Source: a virus
Lineage: Duplodnaviria > Heunggongvirae > Uroviricota > Caudoviricetes
DNA length: 15,283 nt
IMG/VR virus record: IMGVR_UViG_3300017778_003242
Span: 1 to 15,283 of that record
Strand: one strand, 5' to 3'
Below are positions 5,102-15,283 of this stretch, piece after piece. A program made the position numbers and the translations under genes. Below the pieces are notes generated by a model. The model was not told where the DNA came from, searched no databases, and saw only the letters and a program-made list of their open reading frames with translations. Position 1 is the stretch's first letter. The number at the start of each line of letters is the position of its first letter.

Positions 5102-7678
5102 TCAGACAAGACCATCCAGATCGTCGGTGATATCGTCCACTCCGTATCGGTCATCCGCTTCGAAATCCTGCATCACGTCCCCAGTGAGACTGCCGAACAG
5201 GTTTTCGATGTGAGCCCGGCACACCGGGAGCGGCGGCAGAACGATACATTCGGCCATTCCCTTCTCACTGGCGTCCACTTCCAAGAAGTCCAGACCCTCC
5301 GGAAGTTTCATCCGGCGCTTGCTCTCCGTCGTCTCCGGGAACATGAACTGGATGGCGGTCAGGAAGCGCGACTTGAAGTCGAACAGCAATTCACCCTTGA
5401 GACGTTCACCCATGAATAGTTTCATTGAGTTACGCAATGCAGTGACGGGCACTGCAATAGGACGTGTTTCCCAATTCGAGATGACGCCCTTGGTGGCCCG
5501 GTAGGTCGGCGAGGGGTCGAACATCATCGGCATCGATTCGTTGACGATGCGTTCGATCCACCATTCGGCGCGGTCGCCGTACTCGATACGGACTTGGCGG
5601 CGCAGCGCCGACGATGTGACGCGATCGCGCTCTGGTTCGAAGTCGCCGATCTCGTGGTGCATCAGGTCAAAGAACATCGCCTGAATGCCATCGGTGTGAG
5701 GGCGAGCCCGCGTGCCGTACAGGTCTTCATGCGCCTTCTCATAGATCGAGTTGGGCTTGCGGATGTTCATCTTCGCGTCGGTCACAACGTACCGGCGCTC
5801 GCCTTGCGTGGCGGCAACGACGTGCTGATCGTTGGACGCGATCATGAACTTAAGGTGGTTCTTGATCGTGGCCTGCGGCATGTACTTCTCTTCGACGCGG
5901 ATCGTCGGCGAGTTGATACGCTGCTTCACCTTGCCATCGATAGACTTGTCACCGGCGAAGAGAGCTTCGTCGAGGAACAACGCCAGCGTCGATGACATCT
6001 GGTTGTTGAAGCGTCCGAACACGTCGTCCTTCTCATCCGTCGTCAGGCCGTGCTTGCCGAACATATCGCGCCATGCGTTGGCGAACATCGACTTACCAAG
6101 ACCCTTGTCGCCTTGCATCACGAACGCAACGCGTTGCGCACCGGCGGGATGCTGGACGGAGTACGCCATCCACTTCATGACGTAGTCATACATCTCTTTG
6201 TCGCGGTCGCAGATGTTCTCGAAAAAGATTTCCTTCAGCCGGTCCCAGCTTCCATTGCCACGGAAGTCCGGATCGAACGGCCAGCCTCGCCACATATTGT
6301 AGTAAAGGCCTGTGGGAGTGGAGAATTCGGGATCACTGCCCGGTGCGAAATCGACGCCCATGTATTCGCGGCGCTGGGGATGGCGACGCCAGAAGTCGAA
6401 GTGCGTCATCTCCATCTTCTTCTCGCCGCCCGCTTGCGCGACAGAGGTGATCAGCGAACGGTTCGCGTCCATCTCGATCATGGCGCTACGCTTACGGAAC
6501 ACCGGGATAACGGTGCCGGACAGAGAGTGATATGTGTTGCCCATATAGAAGGGCTCGGTCGTCATGAGCACGAGCGCGTGCTCATCGTTCATCGCCTTGA
6601 CGATCTTCGTCTCAAGGCTTTCAGGCATGATCTCGCCTTCCAGCTCTTGGGCCGTGATGTCATCGAGATCGGTCGCGAACATCACGCTCGCGCTTTCCGT
6701 CGGCCATTTGGTACGCGGGATATTGAGCTGGCCAAGCACTTTGAATACGAGGCCTGTCTTCAGGCTGTCCACCTTCGGCGTGAGACTGTCCCAGCGCTTG
6801 CGGATGATCTCGTCTTGATCCGAATAGTTCGGATCGCGGATAGACCAGTCAGTGAATTCTTCACGCCCCGTGCCGCCTGTCATCCAGTGGCACGCCATCA
6901 TGAACTGTTCCCATGATGGGTCTGACCCCGACCGGAATGTCTCCGGCGGAATCAGAGCGAGCGTGTCTGCAAGCTGGAAAGACGAAAACCGACCAAAGCT
7001 CTCTTCACCGGCTTGCTTGACATAATCTGGGGGATCGATGTGCTTGAAAAGCTCCATGAGCTTTGCAGGCGCTTCGATCGTGTTGATAAGCGCGAACGAT
7101 TGGTCGCCCGGCTTGTAATAGTTGCCCGGCTCAATGCCTTCCTTCGCATCGCCGGGATGGATAGACCCCATGGCGACGACGTAGCGGCGAGCCCCGTGCT
7201 TGAATTCAACGCCGGGATATTCCTTGATCTGTTCTCGACCACGGAAGTCCTTCGGTATCCTTAGATAGATGTGAAGACCACGTCCACCCGTTTCGACGAA
7301 TGCGTATTGGCCGTGCTGAATGCCAAGGTCTGCAAGAAGCCTATCAATGCTTCGCTGACCGACGACGTTGCGCATACGGAGAACATCGTTGTGGACGTTC
7401 TCTTCCTTCAGTTTCATCATGACTGGATCGCGACGTGGATCGTAATCGAGAACGCCCCATCCGTCGCCTAGACGGAAGCCGACGTTTTTGCCGCCCTCCA
7501 TCCAATTAACCATATCATTGAATTCGAACTCTTCATTCGTCCAATCCTTAACGGACGGCGTCTTGCCCAACGGCTTGCCCTGCTTCGACAGCGAGCGCCA
7601 GTGGCAGAGCGGAATGAGTCGGTTGCCAAGCGGGGCGTATTGTTTAAGCCACTTCGCATTAGGAACGGGTTCGGTCAT
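5102..7678 (-). CDS. Phage primase: N-terminal bifunctional Prim-Pol domain, PriCT-2 domain and C-terminal SF3/DUF5906 (NrS-1-like) helicase, 858 aa
   Basis: Prim-Pol motifs GKTP, NVGFRLG..GVLDYDPR and VETGGRGLHIY. PriCT-2-like segment LADTLALIP...WEQFMMACH...F.DWS...Y...RKRWDS. Walker A GDKGLGKS, Walker B LFLDEA and motif C FMIASN. Confidence 0.93.
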   Translation of the reverse strand: MTEPVPNAKWLKQYAPLGNRLIPLCHWRSLSKQGKPLGKTPSVKDWTNEEFEFNDMVNWMEGGKNVGFRLGDGWGVLDYDPRRDPVMMKLKEENVHNDVLRMRNVVGQRSIDRLLADLGIQHGQYAFVETGGRGLHIYLRIPKDFRGREQIKEYPGVEFKHGARRYVVAMGSIHPGDAKEGIEPGNYYKPGDQSFALINTIEAPAKLMELFKHIDPPDYVKQAGEESFGRFSSFQLADTLALIPPETFRSGSDPSWEQFMMACHWMTGGTGREEFTDWSIRDPNYSDQDEIIRKRWDSLTPKVDSLKTGLVFKVLGQLNIPRTKWPTESASVMFATDLDDITAQELEGEIMPESLETKIVKAMNDEHALVLMTTEPFYMGNTYHSLSGTVIPVFRKRSAMIEMDANRSLITSVAQAGGEKKMEMTHFDFWRRHPQRREYMGVDFAPGSDPEFSTPTGLYYNMWRGWPFDPDFRGNGSWDRLKEIFFENICDRDKEMYDYVMKWMAYSVQHPAGAQRVAFVMQGDKGLGKSMFANAWRDMFGKHGLTTDEKDDVFGRFNNQMSSTLALFLDEALFAGDKSIDGKVKQRINSPTIRVEEKYMPQATIKNHLKFMIASNDQHVVAATQGERRYVVTDAKMNIRKPNSIYEKAHEDLYGTRARPHTDGIQAMFFDLMHHEIGDFEPERDRVTSSALRRQVRIEYGDRAEWWIERIVNESMPMMFDPSPTYRATKGVISNWETRPIAVPVTALRNSMKLFMGERLKGELLFDFKSRFLTAIQFMFPETTESKRRMKLPEGLDFLEVDASEKGMAECIVLPPLPVCRAHIENLFGSLTGDVMQDFEADDRYGVDDITDDLDGLV

Positions 7679-7811: not shown

Positions 7812-8474
7812 ATGAACACCCTCCATATTTCCACTGCGGGGCCGGAAGTCGCTTCCGCTCTTGCCGTACTCGGTGCGTCGCAACCGAACGCCGAATTCAC
7901 TCTCACGATCAACGGCGGCAATCTCGCCGCTCTTCTCGCCGGTGCCGCCATTGCCGGTGCGCCCGCTGTGGTTAACGCCCCGATGACTGCGGTCGCCCCT
8001 GTCTTCACCAAGCCCGCTGTTGTCGCGCCGACGACTGAAGGCGTCCTGCCGGGTTCCATGTCCGTCGAGATGGGCAAGCGCATCCGTCGCACGAAGGAAG
8101 AAAACGCCGCTGGCCTGACCATCGAAGAAGCCGAAGCGTTCCGCGCGTCCGGCCAGACCGATGCCATGGCGTTCAAGGCGGCGCTCGATGGCAATGCCCC
8201 GTCGTCTGAAGCGGCTGATGCCACCGGCGGCGTAGTCGCTACGGCCCCCACCTCGGCTCCGGAAGCCCCGGCACCGACTTCGACCGTCACTGAATCCGGC
8301 CCGGTCACCGAAGCTGATCTGCGCACCGCCGCAGCGGCGGCTGTCGGCGCTGGCAAGAAAGCCGAAGTCATGAAGATCGCGACTGACGCTGGCGTGAAGA
8401 AGTGGAGCGAGCTGGACCCGTCCAAGTACGGCGAAGTCCTGACCGCTCTGACGGCGCTGATGGTCGTCGGCTAA
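7812..8474 (+). CDS. Hypothetical Ala/Pro/Thr-rich protein with a small helical C-terminal domain, of the type often found upstream of DUF2800 genes
   Basis: AAGGA SD. C-terminal VTEADLRTAA...G..AEV.KI....GVKKWSELDPSKYGEV pattern, low-complexity linker and a basic KRIRRTKEE patch. Confidence 0.85.
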   Translation: MNTLHISTAGPEVASALAVLGASQPNAEFTLTINGGNLAALLAGAAIAGAPAVVNAPMTAVAPVFTKPAVVAPTTEGVLPGSMSVEMGKRIRRTKEENAAGLTIEEAEAFRASGQTDAMAFKAALDGNAPSSEAADATGGVVATAPTSAPEAPAPTSTVTESGPVTEADLRTAAAAAVGAGKKAEVMKIATDAGVKKWSELDPSKYGEVLTALTALMVVG

Positions 8475-8492
8475 TTCTACCTGTTGCGCTCA

Positions 8493-8525
8493 GTTACACT
8501 ACAGGAATGGTTCCTGTAGTGTAAC
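8493..8525. repeat. Perfect 15-bp inverted repeat (hairpin/cruciform) with a 3-nt loop
   Basis: GTTACACTACAGGAA-TGG-TTCCTGTAGTGTAAC in an intergenic spacer, with no U-tract on either side. Confidence 0.95.
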
Positions 8526-8547
8526 CGCGCCCGCCAAGGAAATTCTC

Positions 8548-8826
8548 ATGCGTAAGCACAAAGACCACGTCAAAGTCGCTGGACCGTCTGGCAAGCGCCC
8601 GGACCGCTTCTTTGGCCAGACTGAAATGAACCCGGTCGGCTTCCTCCAGACGCGCGCCCATGTGCGCAAGCACTTCCACCAGCTCAAGGCGCAGATGCGG
8701 CGCATGGCTCGTAAGATCGACTACAACTGGCCGCTCGTCGGCGAGAAGTTCGACGACAAGGGCAATCGCATTCCGTTCCGTGTTCTGCACGAAACGAAAG
8801 GCTGGCAGTCGGCGAGGATCGCCTGA
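8548..8826 (+). CDS. Hypothetical basic protein, 92 aa
   Basis: AAGGA SD, TGATG overlap with the next gene, and a C-terminal LHETKGW motif of the kind seen in small phage proteins. Confidence 0.75.
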   Translation: MRKHKDHVKVAGPSGKRPDRFFGQTEMNPVGFLQTRAHVRKHFHQLKAQMRRMARKIDYNWPLVGEKFDDKGNRIPFRVLHETKGWQSARIA

Positions 8827-9038
8827 TGGAAGAGGTAGGCACAGCACTTGCAATAAGTCCTTCTGGGCGGCGCGTGCCTATCGCTTTCCTTCAGGTTGGC
8901 GATAAGGTTCGGGCGTACCGGATAAAGGACGGCCAATACGCCAACTGGGAAATCGCTGTTGGCATCAATTTCAATTCAAAAGCCGAAGCCGTCGAACATC
9001 TCGAACGCAAAGGCTGGTCCGTGGAGATCGACGAATGA
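8826..9038 (+). CDS. Hypothetical protein, 70 aa
   Basis: Coupled to both neighbours (TGATG at 8824-8828 and ATGA at 9035-9038). Confidence 0.75.
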   Translation: MEEVGTALAISPSGRRVPIAFLQVGDKVRAYRIKDGQYANWEIAVGINFNSKAEAVEHLERKGWSVEIDE

Positions 9039-9286
9039 GTCACGTGTCAGTCTGCAAGAACGTGATCGCCGCCAACAACAAGAGAGGTTGGGTTGATCCT
9101 GATCCTGCTATCCGCATCTCGAACACGAAGAGCGGCAAGGCGATCGCCCGCGGCCACACTGTCGCGATCAAGGACAAGGCTGGCAACATAGTTGCACGCA
9201 TCGTCACGACGCAGGACGGAACGCCTGTGATCAAATGCGGTGCCAAGGTCGGCATCATCACCGAGTACCCAGTCGAGGTTCTGTAA
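9035..9286 (+). CDS. Conserved phage hypothetical protein, 83 aa
   Basis: Pattern HV..NVI.AN.K.G...P.I......GHTV.I....G..VA.IV...D..P...CGAKV.I.T, which I recall as a widespread phage family. ATGA and TAATG overlaps at its ends. Confidence 0.8.
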   Translation: MSHVSVCKNVIAANNKRGWVDPDPAIRISNTKSGKAIARGHTVAIKDKAGNIVARIVTTQDGTPVIKCGAKVGIITEYPVEVL

Positions 9287-10755
9287 TGACTGCCCACGCA
9301 ATTCTCGGCGCGTCATCGTCTGAGCGCTGGATGAAGTGTGCGGCATCGGTCCCGATGTCCGCGCCATTCCCCAACACCACGTCGTCCTACGCTGCCGAAG
9401 GCACCGTTGCGCACATGGTCTGCGAAGAGGCCACCAAGGCTGGCAAGAAAGCCTCGGCCTTCATCGGTATGTGGGGTGACGGCTCTGAGGCTCACAAGGA
9501 TGAGCCCCTGTACGCCAAGCCGAAGAAGCGCACGAAGTTCGAATTCGAAGTCACAGACGAGATGGCCCGTGCTGTCCAAGTGTATCTTGACGCGATCAAT
9601 GCCAAGGTCTTCGAACTGGAGCTGATGGGCCACACCGTTCAAGTCGGCGTCGAGACGGGCTTCTCGCTCGCCAAGGCGATGGGCCGGGACGATATGTTCG
9701 GCACCAACGACACGTCGGTATTCGTGCCGAAGGTTTATCTCGGCGTGTTCGACTATAAACATGGCCGCGGAAAGGTCGTTGAAGTCGAGGACAATCCGCA
9801 GCTCAAATACTATGCTCTCGGCAAGCTGATCGAAGTGTGCTGGAATGACTTGCTCGGCGGCTTCGATGAAGACCTGATGCCGGAAGAAATCGAGCTGTTC
9901 GTCGGCCAGCCCCGTGCGCCTCACGCTGATGGCCCGGTGCGCCCGTGGAAGATCGACCCGACTGCACTGATCGAAGACTTTGTCGCTGAGCTGAAAGACG
10001 CTGCGACCAAAGTGGATGCGATGAACGCCATCCGCGATGTGGCTCTCGCTGCCAAGCAAGAGCCTGCTTACCCGGAGGACGCATTCGCCGTCGGTGACTG
10101 GTGCGGCTTCTGCAAGGCCAAGATCGTGTGTCCTGCATTCCGCAAGGAAGCGCAACGCGCTATGACGAGCAACTTCGCTGACGACGGTTTGTCTATCGAA
10201 GAGCTGGGCGATCTCGCGGCTGAAGCCACGAAAGACATGGTCACCAAGACCGGCAAGAACAAAGGCGCTCCGTCGGCCAAGCCGATCAACGAGTGGACGA
10301 GATCGAAGGCCAATGAGATGGCCAAGCTTGTCGCCCATACGAACAGCCCCGATACGATCAAGCGCCTCTTGAATGCTGCCGACCTGATCGAGCAATTCGC
10401 CAAGGCCGTTCGGCTTCAAGCGTACAACATGGTCAGCCAAGGCGTCGATCTGCCAGACTACAAACTGGTGCGTCAGGCGACCAAGCGTCGCTGGGCTGGC
10501 GACCAGTCCGAGATCGCTGATACTCTCGGCCTCTTCTTCGATGACGAGGAAGTCTTGTTCGAGCCGCGCAAGCTGAAAAGCTTCACGGATATCGAAGAGA
10601 TGAATCCGGAAGCGGCGAAGCTGGTCAAGGGGTTGACCGAACGTCCGGACGGTGCTCTTGTGCTGGTCAAATCGACCGACAAGCGCGAAGCCGTGAAGGC
10701 CTCCGCATCGGATGCTTTCGAAGGCGATGAACTGGATGTCACCGAGTTGGAATAA
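9286..10755 (+). CDS. DUF2800 family Cas4-like PD-(D/E)xK nuclease, 489 aa; start reassigned from 9235 to 9286
   Basis: HAILGASSSERWMKC, AAEGTVAH, VGVE...FGTND...VFDYKHGRG, NPQLKYYALG, QPR and the Fe-S-type WCGFCKAKIVC motif. TAATG overlap with a GAGGT SD at 9275-9279. Confidence 0.92.
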   Translation: MTAHAILGASSSERWMKCAASVPMSAPFPNTTSSYAAEGTVAHMVCEEATKAGKKASAFIGMWGDGSEAHKDEPLYAKPKKRTKFEFEVTDEMARAVQVYLDAINAKVFELELMGHTVQVGVETGFSLAKAMGRDDMFGTNDTSVFVPKVYLGVFDYKHGRGKVVEVEDNPQLKYYALGKLIEVCWNDLLGGFDEDLMPEEIELFVGQPRAPHADGPVRPWKIDPTALIEDFVAELKDAATKVDAMNAIRDVALAAKQEPAYPEDAFAVGDWCGFCKAKIVCPAFRKEAQRAMTSNFADDGLSIEELGDLAAEATKDMVTKTGKNKGAPSAKPINEWTRSKANEMAKLVAHTNSPDTIKRLLNAADLIEQFAKAVRLQAYNMVSQGVDLPDYKLVRQATKRRWAGDQSEIADTLGLFFDDEEVLFEPRKLKSFTDIEEMNPEAAKLVKGLTERPDGALVLVKSTDKREAVKASASDAFEGDELDVTELE

Positions 10756-11107
10756 CTGCGACGAACCCGAGAACCAACTGTGGAAGGCGAAGGTCTTCCG
10801 AATGTTGTGCGATGCCCTCGGATTTGTCGGCGCAGGCATGAAGGTCAAGGACAAGCACAAGTGCGTGACGGAAGCGCGCTTGTGGTTCTACGACAAGAAG
10901 TACAAAGGCGAGTTTGAAGCGACGTGTGAGGCCGCTGGATATGAGCCCGAACAGGTGCGAGCTGCGGCGCGCAAACTGATCATGGCGAAGCAGTCCGGCG
11001 ACCACTCCAATGTCCCCGATTACTGGCGCAAAGCATTCAAGGATGGACGTATGCCTTCCCTGACTGCCTATAATGCCGCACTTGCCAATTCGGAAGAAGA
11101 CGAGTAA
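10736..11107 (+). CDS. Hypothetical helical protein; start uncertain (10712, 10727 or 10736)
   Basis: Pattern E..LW.A.V..ML.DA...EARLWF...F...CEAAG.EP..VR, recalled from small phage proteins. It fills the gap between the nuclease and SSB genes on the coding strand. Confidence 0.75.
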   Translation: MSPSWNNCDEPENQLWKAKVFRMLCDALGFVGAGMKVKDKHKCVTEARLWFYDKKYKGEFEATCEAAGYEPEQVRAAARKLIMAKQSGDHSNVPDYWRKAFKDGRMPSLTAYNAALANSEEDE

Positions 11108-11168
11108 GAACTACCTATCGCTGTCCAATGTCGTTCAGCGAGCATCACTGCCAAGGAAGGCACAAACT

Positions 11169-11816
11169 ATGACTACGCAAACCAAACCCCTGAACGAAAT
11201 CGTCACGTCCCCCATCGTGACCGCATCTTTCATCAGCGTCGATAAGGCTCGTCCTGACGACAACGGTGTCCTGAAGTTCAGCTCCACCTTCATCTTCGAC
11301 CCGAAGAAGCTGTCGGCCTCCGATAAGAAGCGGCTCGCCGCCATGAAAGAGATCGCCAAGAAAACTCTCGTGGCGAAGTTCGGCCCGGAATGCCTCGACG
11401 CGAGCGGCAATCCGAAGGGGAACTCCAAGTGGCCGTTCCGCGACGCCGCTGACCTGTCGAAACACAAGGGCTTCGAAGCTGGGAAGATTTTCTTCCGCGC
11501 TTCCACCGAACAGAAGCCCTCGCTCGGCAAGTACGTCGTCGAGAACGGCGTCGCCAAGGTCGTTGACGTGGATGACACGTCGATGTTCTACAGCGGCGCT
11601 CAAGTCCAAGCCAAGCTGAACTGCTTCGCTTACGACGCCAAGGGCAACAAGGGCGTCAGCTTCGGCCTGCGCTCTCTCGCATTCATCCGTGACGGCGAAC
11701 GTCTCGGCGGCGGCAACGAGGACGCCTCGAAAGCGTTCTCCGGCGGCGCTGGCCTCGACGCTTCGGAACTCGGCTTCGAAGAAGCTGCGAACGAAGGCGG
11801 CGGCGGTCTGTTCTAG
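11169..11816 (+). CDS. DUF2815 family phage single-stranded DNA-binding protein (Enc34/APSE type), 215 aa; start reassigned from 11073 to 11169
   Basis: Motifs WPFRDA, FFRAST..KP, FYSGA.V.A.LN.FAY...GNKGVSFGL..L.FIRDGERLGG, and an acidic tail ending in Phe. Strong AAGGAAGG SD before ATG 11169. Confidence 0.92.
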   Translation: MTTQTKPLNEIVTSPIVTASFISVDKARPDDNGVLKFSSTFIFDPKKLSASDKKRLAAMKEIAKKTLVAKFGPECLDASGNPKGNSKWPFRDAADLSKHKGFEAGKIFFRASTEQKPSLGKYVVENGVAKVVDVDDTSMFYSGAQVQAKLNCFAYDAKGNKGVSFGLRSLAFIRDGERLGGGNEDASKAFSGGAGLDASELGFEEAANEGGGGLF

Positions 11817-11959: not shown

Positions 11960-12613
11960 ATGAAGTTGAACGACTATCAGCGCGAGGCCAGTGGCACCGC
12001 TATCTATCCGGGGCGCATGAGCCCCCATGGCATGATGTACTGTGCCCTCAAGATGAACGGCGAATCGAGCGAGTTGCTGGATCACGTTTATGACGCGGTT
12101 ACGATCGAGAAATTCAAGCCCGGCGAAGTCGGCTTGCGTCCTGACCGCCTCCATCTAATCGTCAAGGAAGTCGGCGACGTGGCGTGGTATCTTGCGGCCA
12201 TGGCTGACGAACTCCAGACCAGCCTCCACGCCATCTACGGCGGCGAGCCTATACTGGTTGAAGACGGCGCGGGCACTCTCGCGCTGAACGCAATGAAGCT
12301 CGATTCATTCGTCGGCCAGATCGCCGAACAACTCGGCAAGGCGATGCGCGACGACGGCTACGGAATGGAATTCGATTACAAGCCCGGCGCGTTGCGTGTA
12401 GGCGAGAAGGGCAACGGCAAGTTCGCATCCGACAGCCTCACTGATCAGCGCCGTGCCGTGATCATTGAAAACATGCACGGAGCGATGAACTCGCTCGTCT
12501 TAATCTGCGGAGAGCTGGACACATCACTACAGCTCGCTCTGGAGATCAACATCAAAAAGCTCGCTGCCCGGAAAGCCAAGGGCACGCTGAGCGGATCAGG
12601 TGACAACCGTTGA
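11960..12613 (+). CDS. mazG: MazG-like (all-alpha NTP pyrophosphohydrolase) protein with an internal duplication, 217 aa; start reassigned from 11918 to 11960
   Basis: YQ..A..TAIYP, GESSE, KEVGDVAWY and C-terminal NI.KL..R..KG.LSGSGDNR. Perfect AGGAGG SD at 11945-11950. Confidence 0.88.
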   Translation: MKLNDYQREASGTAIYPGRMSPHGMMYCALKMNGESSELLDHVYDAVTIEKFKPGEVGLRPDRLHLIVKEVGDVAWYLAAMADELQTSLHAIYGGEPILVEDGAGTLALNAMKLDSFVGQIAEQLGKAMRDDGYGMEFDYKPGALRVGEKGNGKFASDSLTDQRRAVIIENMHGAMNSLVLICGELDTSLQLALEINIKKLAARKAKGTLSGSGDNR

Positions 12614-12897
12614 GCGCCCTTCATGAACTGATCGGACTTCGCGATGATCTCCACAAGATCATCATCGGTGACCTTCTCCAGCACAACAAGAACGTGGTCG
12701 TCCACGATCCGTCGCGCGCTGGCGATACTGTCACTTTCCTCGCCCATGAGACAACTCTGGACGGCGTCATCGAAACAATCGCGTACACCATCGGAAGCGG
12801 AGATTATTCGCTTGACCTGAAGATGGTGAACGGTATGATGGCGACCATCGAAGTGCGCTCATACGCGCCGGAAGTTTCACTTGAAGGACTTGTCTGA
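12610..12897 (+). CDS. Hypothetical protein, 95 aa, TTG start
   Basis: TTGA overlap with the mazG stop, AGGT SD, and TGATG overlap with the next gene. Confidence 0.75.
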   Translation: MSALHELIGLRDDLHKIIIGDLLQHNKNVVVHDPSRAGDTVTFLAHETTLDGVIETIAYTIGSGDYSLDLKMVNGMMATIEVRSYAPEVSLEGLV

Positions 12898-13184
12898 TGG
12901 AAGACGAAATCAACGTCGATGCAATCGCCCTGAACCTTGGCGACAACGCCAAGAAGGCATTGCAGAATACAGTCGCCCGGATCGAACGTGTCCAAGAGGA
13001 CATCGACGAACACAAGGCGGCGCAGAAAGACATCTACGCCGAAGCGAAGTCCATGGGCTATGACGTGAAGGCGCTCCGCAAGGTCGTCGCCCGTCGCAAG
13101 ATGGACCGCCAAGAACGCGAAGAAGCGGACGCCATTCTCGAAACATACGAGACGGCGATCAACGGTCTGGAAGGCCTTGTCTAA
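12897..13184 (+). CDS. gapR: GapR-like nucleoid-associated protein (DUF2312/UPF0335), 95 aa
   Basis: L...V.RIER...D......KDIYAEAKSMGYDVKALRKVV..RK.D...REE.DAILE.Y..AI matches the Caulobacter GapR family pattern. Confidence 0.92.
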   Translation: MEDEINVDAIALNLGDNAKKALQNTVARIERVQEDIDEHKAAQKDIYAEAKSMGYDVKALRKVVARRKMDRQEREEADAILETYETAINGLEGLV

Positions 13185-15283
13185 GCACGTAACCCTCGAC
13201 TTCGAAACCCGATCAGAAGTCGGTATCGATGTCGGCGCTTGGCGCTACGCTGGCGATCCCTCTACGGAGGTGATGATGCTGGCGTGGGCCATCGGCGACG
13301 CCATCGAAAATCCCGACATCTTCTGGGGGCCGACCATCGCTCAACCGGCGGTGCTGGGGGAGCCGTACAAGGTCGGTGAGCGCAAGGGCCAGCCCCGCGT
13401 GCTCGTCCCGGCCATTGAGGTGCCAACGCCAGAACTGGACACGCTGACCGGCTTGCCGGTTTGCCCGCCCGCGCTCGTCAAGGCGATCGCCGACGGTATG
13501 CTGTTCGAGGCTCACAACGCTGAGTTCGAACGTGCTGTGTGGACGTGCATCTGCGTACGTCGTTGGGGATGGCCCCAGATACCGTTGCGCCAGTGGCGAT
13601 GCTCCGCAGCTAAAGGCGCAGCGTACGCTCTACCGCGCGATCTGGAGCGATTGGCGCGCGTCCTGAGTGTCAAGCATCAGAAAGACGTGGGCGAGGGTAG
13701 CGCTGCGCTCAAATCGCTCTACAAGCCCCGTGAGCCCACCAAGGATAACCCGCGGAAGTGGCCCGGCGACACGGCCACGTTCCTACGGTGCGCCGACTAT
13801 AACAAACAGGACGTGCGGGCGGAATACGATGTCTCGAAAGAGCTGCCCGATCTGATTCCATTCGAATGGGAAATCTGGTTCGTCGATCAAGAACTGAACG
13901 AGCGCGGCGTCAAGATCGACATCGATCTCGCTGAAGCGGCTATGCGTCTCGCTGAAGATGCGAAGCACGTGATGAACACAGAGCTGCGCGACCTGATGCA
14001 AGACCCGACGGTCACCGGCGGATCGCGCGATCGCGTGAAAGAACACCTTGGCCTGATCTACAAAGAGTTCGATGACCTTCAAGGCGAGACGCTGGACAAG
14101 GCGCTGGAAGACCCGGAGATCAGCTCTCACGCGCTGCGTGTGATTGAGCTGGTGCGCGATATCAACCGCACGACCACGTCCAAGTACAAGAAGGCCGTCG
14201 CTCGCTGCCTTGAGGACCACTTCGCCCGCTCGAACCTCATGTACTGGGGAGCCCAAACCGGGCGCTGGAGCGGCAAGGGTCTACAGCTCCACAATCTCAA
14301 ACGCCCCGGCAAGCCGCATCCGAAGTATGCGACGGCCAAGGGCAAGCTCGACATGGACAAGCTCGCCGCCGACATCAAACAGATGACGGTGAAAGAGCTT
14401 ATGCTTTTGTCGAAGATGCCGATCAACTTCCTGTCGGACGTGATCCGCGGCCTGATCATCCCACGCGCTGGTTACGAACTGGCGGTCGGCGACTACGCGG
14501 CTGTTGAAGCGCGCGGCGTGATGTGGCTGGCGAACTGCCAGATCGCTCTCGACATCTTCGCGAGCGGCAAGGACATCTATCTCGACATCGCCATGGAGAT
14601 TTATCGCCGCCATCTTACGAAGGCGGACGAGAAAGAACGCCAGCTAGGCAAGCAGGCGATCCTCGGTCTGGGCTATGGCATGGGAGCTGTGAAGTTCCTT
14701 GAGACGTGCGCGAAGTACAAAATCTTCTTCACCGAAGAGATGGCGCGAGCGCTGGTGCCGGAAGCTGACTGGAAGGAACTGGAAGAACTGTTCCGCGATG
14801 CCAAACAGGCGGCGATCTACGCGCCCGGCTATCTCATCACCGAAGAGACGTTGCCCCCGCTGATCATGGCGAAGTACATCGTCGATCGTTATCGCGGCAA
14901 GTACGATGAAGTGAAGAAGACGTGGCGCGAAGTCGAGAACGCGGCTATCGAAGCTCTTCAGCGAGCGGAGAACAACGACAAGAGCTGGGTCGCTTGCTGT
15001 GACAAGAAGATTCACTGGAAGAAGGTCGGCAACTTCCTGTTTTGCCGTCTGCCTTCTGGCCGGTTGCTCTCGTACCCGTTCGCGCATCTGAAAAACGAGA
15101 AGACCAAGTTCCTCGACAAGAATGGCAATCCTGTCTACAAGCCGTCCATCCGCTACTTCGCCGTTGACGGCCTCACGAAGCAATGGGGTCCGACGCACAC
15201 CTACGGCGGGGCACTGGTCGAAAACATCGTCCAAGCTATCTGCCGCGATCTCATGGCGTACGCGATGGTCATGTGCTTTCGCA
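13177..15283 (+). CDS. polA: Family A DNA polymerase with 3'-5' exonuclease (SPO2/APSE type); partial, runs off the window end
   Basis: Not in the ORF track. Manual translation from TTG 13177 is open for 702 codons, with ExoI DFETRS, ExoII AHNAEFER, ExoIII YNKQDV, TGRWSGKGLQLHNL, motif A GDYAAVEAR, motif B RQLGKQAILGLGYGMG and YGGALVENIVQAICRD. Confidence 0.96.
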   Translation, partial: MSKHVTLDFETRSEVGIDVGAWRYAGDPSTEVMMLAWAIGDAIENPDIFWGPTIAQPAVLGEPYKVGERKGQPRVLVPAIEVPTPELDTLTGLPVCPPALVKAIADGMLFEAHNAEFERAVWTCICVRRWGWPQIPLRQWRCSAAKGAAYALPRDLERLARVLSVKHQKDVGEGSAALKSLYKPREPTKDNPRKWPGDTATFLRCADYNKQDVRAEYDVSKELPDLIPFEWEIWFVDQELNERGVKIDIDLAEAAMRLAEDAKHVMNTELRDLMQDPTVTGGSRDRVKEHLGLIYKEFDDLQGETLDKALEDPEISSHALRVIELVRDINRTTTSKYKKAVARCLEDHFARSNLMYWGAQTGRWSGKGLQLHNLKRPGKPHPKYATAKGKLDMDKLAADIKQMTVKELMLLSKMPINFLSDVIRGLIIPRAGYELAVGDYAAVEARGVMWLANCQIALDIFASGKDIYLDIAMEIYRRHLTKADEKERQLGKQAILGLGYGMGAVKFLETCAKYKIFFTEEMARALVPEADWKELEELFRDAKQAAIYAPGYLITEETLPPLIMAKYIVDRYRGKYDEVKKTWREVENAAIEALQRAENNDKSWVACCDKKIHWKKVGNFLFCRLPSGRLLSYPFAHLKNEKTKFLDKNGNPVYKPSIRYFAVDGLTKQWGPTHTYGGALVENIVQAICRDLMAYAMVMCFR

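Follow-up and report, generated by a model that had tools for sequence, protein, structure and literature searches.

The 15,283 bases of DNA analysed here (the window) open a complete phage genome of 79,283 bases with direct terminal repeats. Three of the proteins encoded in it end in L-[D/E]-G-L-V directly before the stop codon, and a six-frame scan of the whole genome found a single further copy, on orf135. The sequence-only reading had placed the three endings at 5119-5102, 12880-12897 and 13167-13184, and we confirmed them there. The strict carriers and their tails are listed below, in window coordinates unless the genome is named.

5102-7678, minus strand: primase-helicase, 858 aa, with Prim-Pol, PriCT-2 and DUF5906/VapE-like NTPase domains and the C-terminal end DDLDGLV
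5102-5119, minus strand: primase-helicase tail, L-D-G-L-V and stop, unchanged in the 99% and 90% relatives
12610-12897, plus strand: orf95, an orphan, a small alpha/beta protein without a family or fold match
12880-12897, plus strand: orf95 tail, L-E-G-L-V and stop (SLEGLV), with a pLDDT of about 50 averaged over residues 91-95 and below 50 at residues 93-95
12897-13184, plus strand: GapR homologue (PF10073, 82.4 bits against a curated cut-off of 22.6)
13167-13184, plus strand: GapR tail, L-E-G-L-V and stop (GLEGLV), about four residues past the commonest family end
Genome 76960-77367, plus strand, beyond the window: orf135, a 135-aa orphan ending DDDLDGLV, the fourth carrier

The earlier claim implied that the ending should be enriched across the full genome, and this is what was found. 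In our 100-gene call of the whole genome, L[DE]GLV stands at the C-terminus of 4 of about 100 proteins and at no internal position in 22,801 residues; the calls come from our own simple codon-usage caller, which can miss small genes or choose other starts. The shorter [DE]GLV occurs internally twice, a rate of 8.8e-5 per position, giving about 0.009 expected C-terminal cases against the 4 observed. A reduced-alphabet 5-mer common to four proteins was reached in none of 20,000 draws of random internal positions, and the 4-mer version of this test in one of 5,000 draws of random positions. Once their last six residues were removed, the carriers had no significant similarity to one another, in agreement with the sequence-only reading. 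An acidic stretch precedes the tip in most of them, with 10 D/E and 1 K/R in the last ~25 residues of the primase-helicase. The tail of orf95 is non-acidic (3 D/E in its last 25 residues) and the tip is still present.

The codons of the fourth copy bear on the level at which the ending is kept. Three copies are written CTN GAN GGN CTT GTC and the orf135 copy is written TTG GAC GGG CTC GTA, differing at the wobble or first position in five of five codons. The CTT GTC pair, taken earlier to be invariant, is therefore not so genome-wide, as orf135 uses CTC GTA. Because the fourth copy is recoded throughout, selection, as judged from these codons, is on the peptide and not on the DNA, a claim of the sequence-only reading that is also borne out by the conservative changes seen in relatives. 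A nucleotide-level cause would have the GAnGGn codons double as the ribosome-binding site for a downstream gene that overlaps, or the 15 bases serve as a signal in DNA or RNA. In its favour, the genes of three of the four carriers run past the next start, by 1, 4 or 8 bases, and GAAGGA and GGAAGG lie at Shine-Dalgarno distance. However, 56 bases separate the primase copy from the next gene, and at most the Glu-Gly of two copies would be covered, leaving the flanking Leu and the Leu-Val unexplained. By rough gene calls, most tail carriers in two phages described below, Brevundimonas phage vB_BsubS-Delta (Delta) and Rhodobacter phage RcSimone-Hastad, also appear to be without a coupled downstream start. 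We regard a nucleotide-level cause as extremely improbable: a DNA-level motif is ruled out by the codons of the fourth copy, and a by-product of ribosome binding is ruled out as a general cause by that recoding together with the primase copy, which has no coupled start, as the earlier reading had already held against it.

Several other proteins of the replication and packaging machinery have either a looser form of the tail or none.

9235-10755, plus strand: Cas4/RecB-like exonuclease, acidic and without a hydrophobic tip here; its orthologue in the Delta lineage bears a shared tail
11073-11816, plus strand: SSB/annealing protein, T7 gp2.5-like (phrog_112), ending GGGGLF, a looser G-L-hydrophobic form
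13177-15283, continuing to genome position 15453, plus strand: family-A DNA polymerase, tail-less; candidate reader (binding partner) of the tails solely by analogy with T7 gp5
Genome 46755-47381: small terminase candidate, with a weak phrog_4044 match and homology to the annotated small terminase of Delta, ending DDLAGLT

The SSB tail had been proposed to be related to the strict ending, and this holds up, with an orf135 homologue ending DFGGLF bridging the strict and SSB-type forms. Relatives of orf95 ending IEGLT and IEDLT likewise bridge both, and the endings taken together suggest a working consensus of [D/E]-hydrophobic-x-G-L-[V/I/F/T]-COOH. Some further details of these genes are worth recording. 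The listed polymerase start, a TTG at 13177, falls within the last GapR codons, so that from this start the two genes would overlap by 8 bases (window 13177-13184). The SF2 helicase adjoining the polymerase (genome 16261-17859, plus strand; L003:1261-2859) ends EMRGLI, as it does in the 90% relative, with G-L-I preceded by Arg and not by an acid. A 133-aa orphan (genome 71811-72212, plus strand; L001:11811-12212) ends DDLDGIVHA, the motif with two extra residues, and no orthologue of it was found in the 90% relative.

All four strict tails are kept in the 99% relative (L004) and in the complete 90% relative (L005, 78.9 kb), and the only changes in them are Glu/Asp, Val/Ile or synonymous; the 90% relative has LDGLV on GapR and LDGLI on orf135. 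It also has a fifth carrier, ending IEGLI, whose orthologue here ends DDGMAF, a difference that may mean the tail was recently acquired or lost. The two genes of this pair (genome 65499-66248, plus strand, and G001 8259-9053, minus strand) are 72% identical. Further out, GapR homologues at 64-65% identity end in MDGLV and AEGLV, and the end found most often in the retrieved GapR homologues, ...ALGEI or a close variant, comes about four residues earlier. Homologues of orf95 at 57-64% identity end in IEGLI, IEGLT and IEDLT, so that [LI]-E-[GD]-L-[VIT] is retained down to 57% identity. The orf135 homologues have in common an N-terminal domain of ~65 residues, followed by a long low-complexity stretch and then the tail. 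Two of them (P0067 and P0068) carry tandem copies of the motif, an internal copy and a terminal copy separated by a short GDDP spacer, for example DISGLV...DLGGLV-stop, and such an arrangement suits a docking motif, as far as sequence can tell. Both orf95 and orf135 were without a match in PHROGs or Pfam, and ESM Atlas scores were below 0.8. Nothing in the PDB matched the orf95 model (pLDDT 84) at E <= 0.001, and the orf135 model (pLDDT 58) was too poor for a fold search. AlphaFold confidence is low at the orf95 tip and in the ~70-residue linker of orf135 (everything past residue ~70), which, as a feature of the models, fits a short motif on a flexible tether.

Degrons of the ssrA type typically end in non-polar residues, and HslV is activated by the C-terminal tail of HslU. 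The shared ending could thus be a degron, with a host AAA+ protease or the HslV-like peptidase (PPH) of the phage as its reader; the PPH gene overlaps orf135 by ATGA. The PPH gene after orf135 (with it at genome 76960-77810, L001:16960-17810) encodes a 148-aa HslV-like Thr1 peptidase that begins MTTIVY and matches phrog_1040; PPH is the HslV-like peptidase family of Fuchs et al. 2021 (PMC8665760). In a comparison with Delta, RcSimone-Hastad, Roseobacter phage RDJL6 and PaMx28, PPH was found only in this phage and its 90% relative, yet the first two of the phages that lack it have significant multi-carrier tails. PPH is also widespread, while orf135 has no homologue among cultured phages. The PPH peptidase as the common reader is therefore ruled out on phyletic grounds. 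More generally, SSB, primase and small terminase, all essential and required in large amounts, are among the carriers, and the internal second copy in two orf135 homologues means that a free carboxylate is not needed for every copy. On these points the shared degron, offered earlier as an alternative to docking, is in our estimation very unlikely.

To compare the tails beyond close relatives, 78 IMG/VR loci were collected with a primase alignment, alongside cultured phages. Delta has gene order in common with this phage, its replication proteins are ~30-38% identical to those here, and the polymerase is 38% identical to its annotated DNA polymerase I. No L[DE]GLV tails were found in Delta; instead, seven of its annotated proteins end in [F/W]DIL. 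These are the primase (EWDIL), the GapR homologue D47 (AFDIL; PF10073, 35 bits), the Cas4-like exonuclease (AFDIL), the small terminase (GFDIL) and the orphans DELTA_79, DELTA_118 and DELTA_119. An apparent carrier ending HWDVL is a spurious antisense ORF and was left out of the count. The Delta SSB ends DEFQL, and BabaJaga has the same pattern as Delta. In RcSimone-Hastad the ending is DPLA, on the primase, the SSB, the small terminase and a 112-aa protein. In RDJL6 the SSB and one small protein end in DPLD and another small protein in GPLD, while DFPDDL closes the primase and one small protein. Locus L107 has DFLD on both GapR and SSB and SYLD on the small terminase; locus L067 has EWDIL on the exonuclease, EWDII on the primase and DWDIL on a 212-aa protein. 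The PF10073 cut-off was passed by the homologues from Delta (D47), L107, L053 and L099. The expectation that orthologues in related phages would keep the tail thus stands for close relatives only, with Delta and other lineages having a different shared tail in place of L[DE]GLV.

Across the same orthologues in this alphaproteobacterial phage group there are at least four versions of the tail. From these comparisons, the same orthologues bear a tail in several lineages and its sequence shifts on all of them together. Such concerted change argues for one common reader. An explanation that does without a reader is that each acidic tail folds in cis onto the DNA-binding surface of its own protein as a DNA mimic. 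The gp2.5 tail of T7 provides a precedent, since it acts in this way on the OB cleft of gp2.5 and competes with ssDNA, and most carriers of known family bind DNA (primase-helicase, GapR, SSB, small terminase and exonuclease), with acidic stretches before the tip in most cases. Yet acidity alone leaves unexplained why unrelated folds have identical tips of four or five residues and why these tips change jointly between lineages, and orf95 keeps the tip on a tail that is not acidic. We consider folding in cis unlikely as the explanation, and the joint change is what a common reader would produce.

The strength of this co-variation was examined within and between genomes. The chance of the observed tail multiplicity was 0.0002 for this phage, and the observed multiplicity was reached in 0 of 5,000 draws each for the 90% relative, Delta and RcSimone-Hastad. 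Tail sharing was not significant in RDJL6, PaMx28, Xp12 and VBv52 by the reduced 4-mer test. In a permutation across 16 lineages with less than 60% primase identity, where genomes were shuffled within families, the within-genome similarity of tails across families was 1.31, compared with 0.85 +/- 0.09 when shuffled (p = 1e-4). The p value was 7e-4 without the discovery lineage and 0.05-0.06 without this phage and the two Delta-like lineages; the cross-lineage signal leans on a few lineages. The gamma- and betaproteobacterial phages of the same primase family (Xp12, PaMx28 and VBv52) have at most an [F/I]-[L/F]-[D/E]-type end on the SSB and one small protein, and the match is close in PaMx28 only. 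Going by the endings themselves, tail sharing is clear in a handful of alphaproteobacterial phage lineages and weak elsewhere.

That multi-carrier tails were seen only in alphaproteobacterial phages would fit a reader supplied by the host, either the beta sliding clamp or the clients of the host SSB tail (DDDIPF). Clamps bind short hydrophobic motifs of the QL[SD]LF or QLxLxL type, and the F-D-I-L of Delta resembles their L-[SD]-L-F core. In some distant lineages the SSB ends in sequences such as DDDIGF or DDDISF, near the bacterial SSB tip. A clamp gene of the phage's own was not found either: PF02767 had no match in this phage, and the same profile matched 10 of 14 control genomes. Against docking on a host hub, none of the tails has a Gln, the motif of this phage has an extra Gly, and DPLA and FLD do not fit the clamp pocket. 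A conserved hub should also impose one motif, but the motifs of this phage and Delta are sharply different and their hosts are seemingly related. T7-type family-A replisomes are not known to use clamps. A host hub is, on balance, an unlikely reader.

We think it fairly probable that the tails are a short linear docking motif through which one common reader engages unrelated DNA-transaction proteins, and that the reader most likely lies in the phage replisome. What was observed is a motif that is enriched, conserved and altered in concert; that it binds a partner, and which protein that is, we infer. The tip of the flexible, mostly acidic tail would be the docking handle, gripped by one partner on the primase-helicase, GapR, orf95 and orf135 and, in a looser form, on the SSB and small terminase. 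Motif and reader would drift jointly between lineages, so that the same proteins bear a different version in each. The analogy with T7 would place the reader among the components of the phage's T7-type replisome.

In T7, the tail of gp2.5 binds the same polymerase as that of gp4, both tails end in Phe, and the terminal aromatic residue is critical. The gp4 helicase docks on the polymerase by its C-terminal tails, whose negative charges meet basic, positively charged patches, and processivity falls about threefold when these tails are removed (PMC8472574). This phage likewise has a gp2.5-like SSB, a primase-helicase and a family-A polymerase (with matches to phrog_112 at 7.6e-29 and phrog_1156 at 3e-58 and with Prim-Pol/DUF5906 domains), and it likewise has flexible acidic tails with a hydrophobic tip that is the same on at least two proteins of one phage. 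The SSB and primase tips are of the same class, DDLDGLV and GGGGLF here and DPLA on both in RcSimone-Hastad. There are also differences. The number of carriers is 4 to 8 per genome here as opposed to 2 in T7, and they include GapR, small terminase, exonuclease and orphans. The primase-helicase here is of the Prim-Pol/SF3 type and that of T7 is a DnaG-DnaB fusion. Finally, the strict carriers end in Val or Ile, and those of Delta in Leu, rather than in an aromatic residue, although the SSB here does end in Phe.

Since the three-part T7-type module is present and a clamp gene was not found, a replisome reader is favoured. By this analogy our first choice would be the family-A polymerase and our second the OB cleft of the gp2.5-like SSB. 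The docking peptide proposed in the sequence-only reading, on the model of gp2.5, fits the comparative evidence. Because the small terminase is a carrier in other lineages, however, the reader need not be a replisome protein at all. Neither small terminase nor GapR is known as a replisome part from the systems studied, and for these two a polymerase in the role of reader would be without precedent. That the small terminase has a tail suggests that replication may be coupled to the initiation of packaging. Caulobacter GapR binds overtwisted DNA ahead of forks, and tethering the phage GapR to the replisome would make sense in this light. A phyletic search for the reader by BLAST gave one non-structural gene that is present in this phage, Delta and RcSimone-Hastad and absent from Xp12, PaMx28 and VBv52.

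Genome 18425-18925 (L003:3425-3925), plus strand: 166-aa protein (phrog_2165), the sole gene from the phyletic reader search

On phyletic grounds it is a candidate for a lineage-restricted partner, but too weak a one to support further conclusions.

A fuller version of the docking reading is that a single reader encoded by the phage, possibly the polymerase, gathers the primase-helicase, SSB, GapR, small terminase and recombination exonuclease by the same handle, with handle and reader co-evolving as lineage "codes". We put this forward tentatively, as a possibility. If true, one assembly would join replication to recombination, to the control of supercoiling in front of the fork and to the initiation of packaging, and the codes could stop co-infecting relatives from mixing their machines. 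If there is one reader, this phage group would be a natural experiment on the wiring of replication, DNA topology, recombination and packaging, and the tails would give a first functional handle on the phage GapR homologues, orf95, orf135 and Delta genes 79, 118 and 119.

In principle, tips of this kind have precedents in the tails of T7, the clamp ligands of T4 and the bacterial SSB tip. In T4, gp43, gp33 and gp55 have C-termini that bind the gp45 clamp, and the likeness lies in unrelated proteins from different processes using a short hydrophobic C-terminal motif on one reader, in that case a ring-shaped hub. The T4 motif is unlike the one here, and it is a clamp gene that this phage appears to be without. 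The bacterial SSB tip, D-D-D-I-P-F, is a hub for more than a dozen genome-maintenance proteins and is similar in being the hydrophobic tip of an acidic disordered tail that serves as a docking handle. The topology is reversed, however, with many carriers and presumably one reader here, and the DDDIPF ending itself was not seen in this phage, which has L[DE]GLV and GGGGLF instead. What is new is how many kinds of protein carry the tail, GapR, small terminase, exonuclease and orphans among them, and the lineage-specific versions on the same orthologues. We found no description of these tails in the Delta genome paper or in literature searches on phage GapR and gp2.5-like proteins.

A pattern scan of IMG/VR for DD[LF]DGLV-stop matched 14 DNA stretches. 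Half of these were not at the end of an ORF of at least 40 aa and are probably chance. The remaining matches were relatives of this phage and two unrelated carriers. One of the two is a primase-helicase of a different family (phrog_256, 1e-213) that ends REDDFDGLV, at L018:2136-4718, plus strand (L032:4687-7269; IMGVR_UViG_3300001592_001164); no second tail was seen on this unrelated 19-kb fragment (L018). The other is a 204-aa orphan ending TDDLDGLV, at L015:1029-1643, plus strand, and also on L016 (tail at 10018-10032), two large marine-type contigs on which it has a sulfotransferase-like neighbour; here the ending may be due to chance or to independent use.
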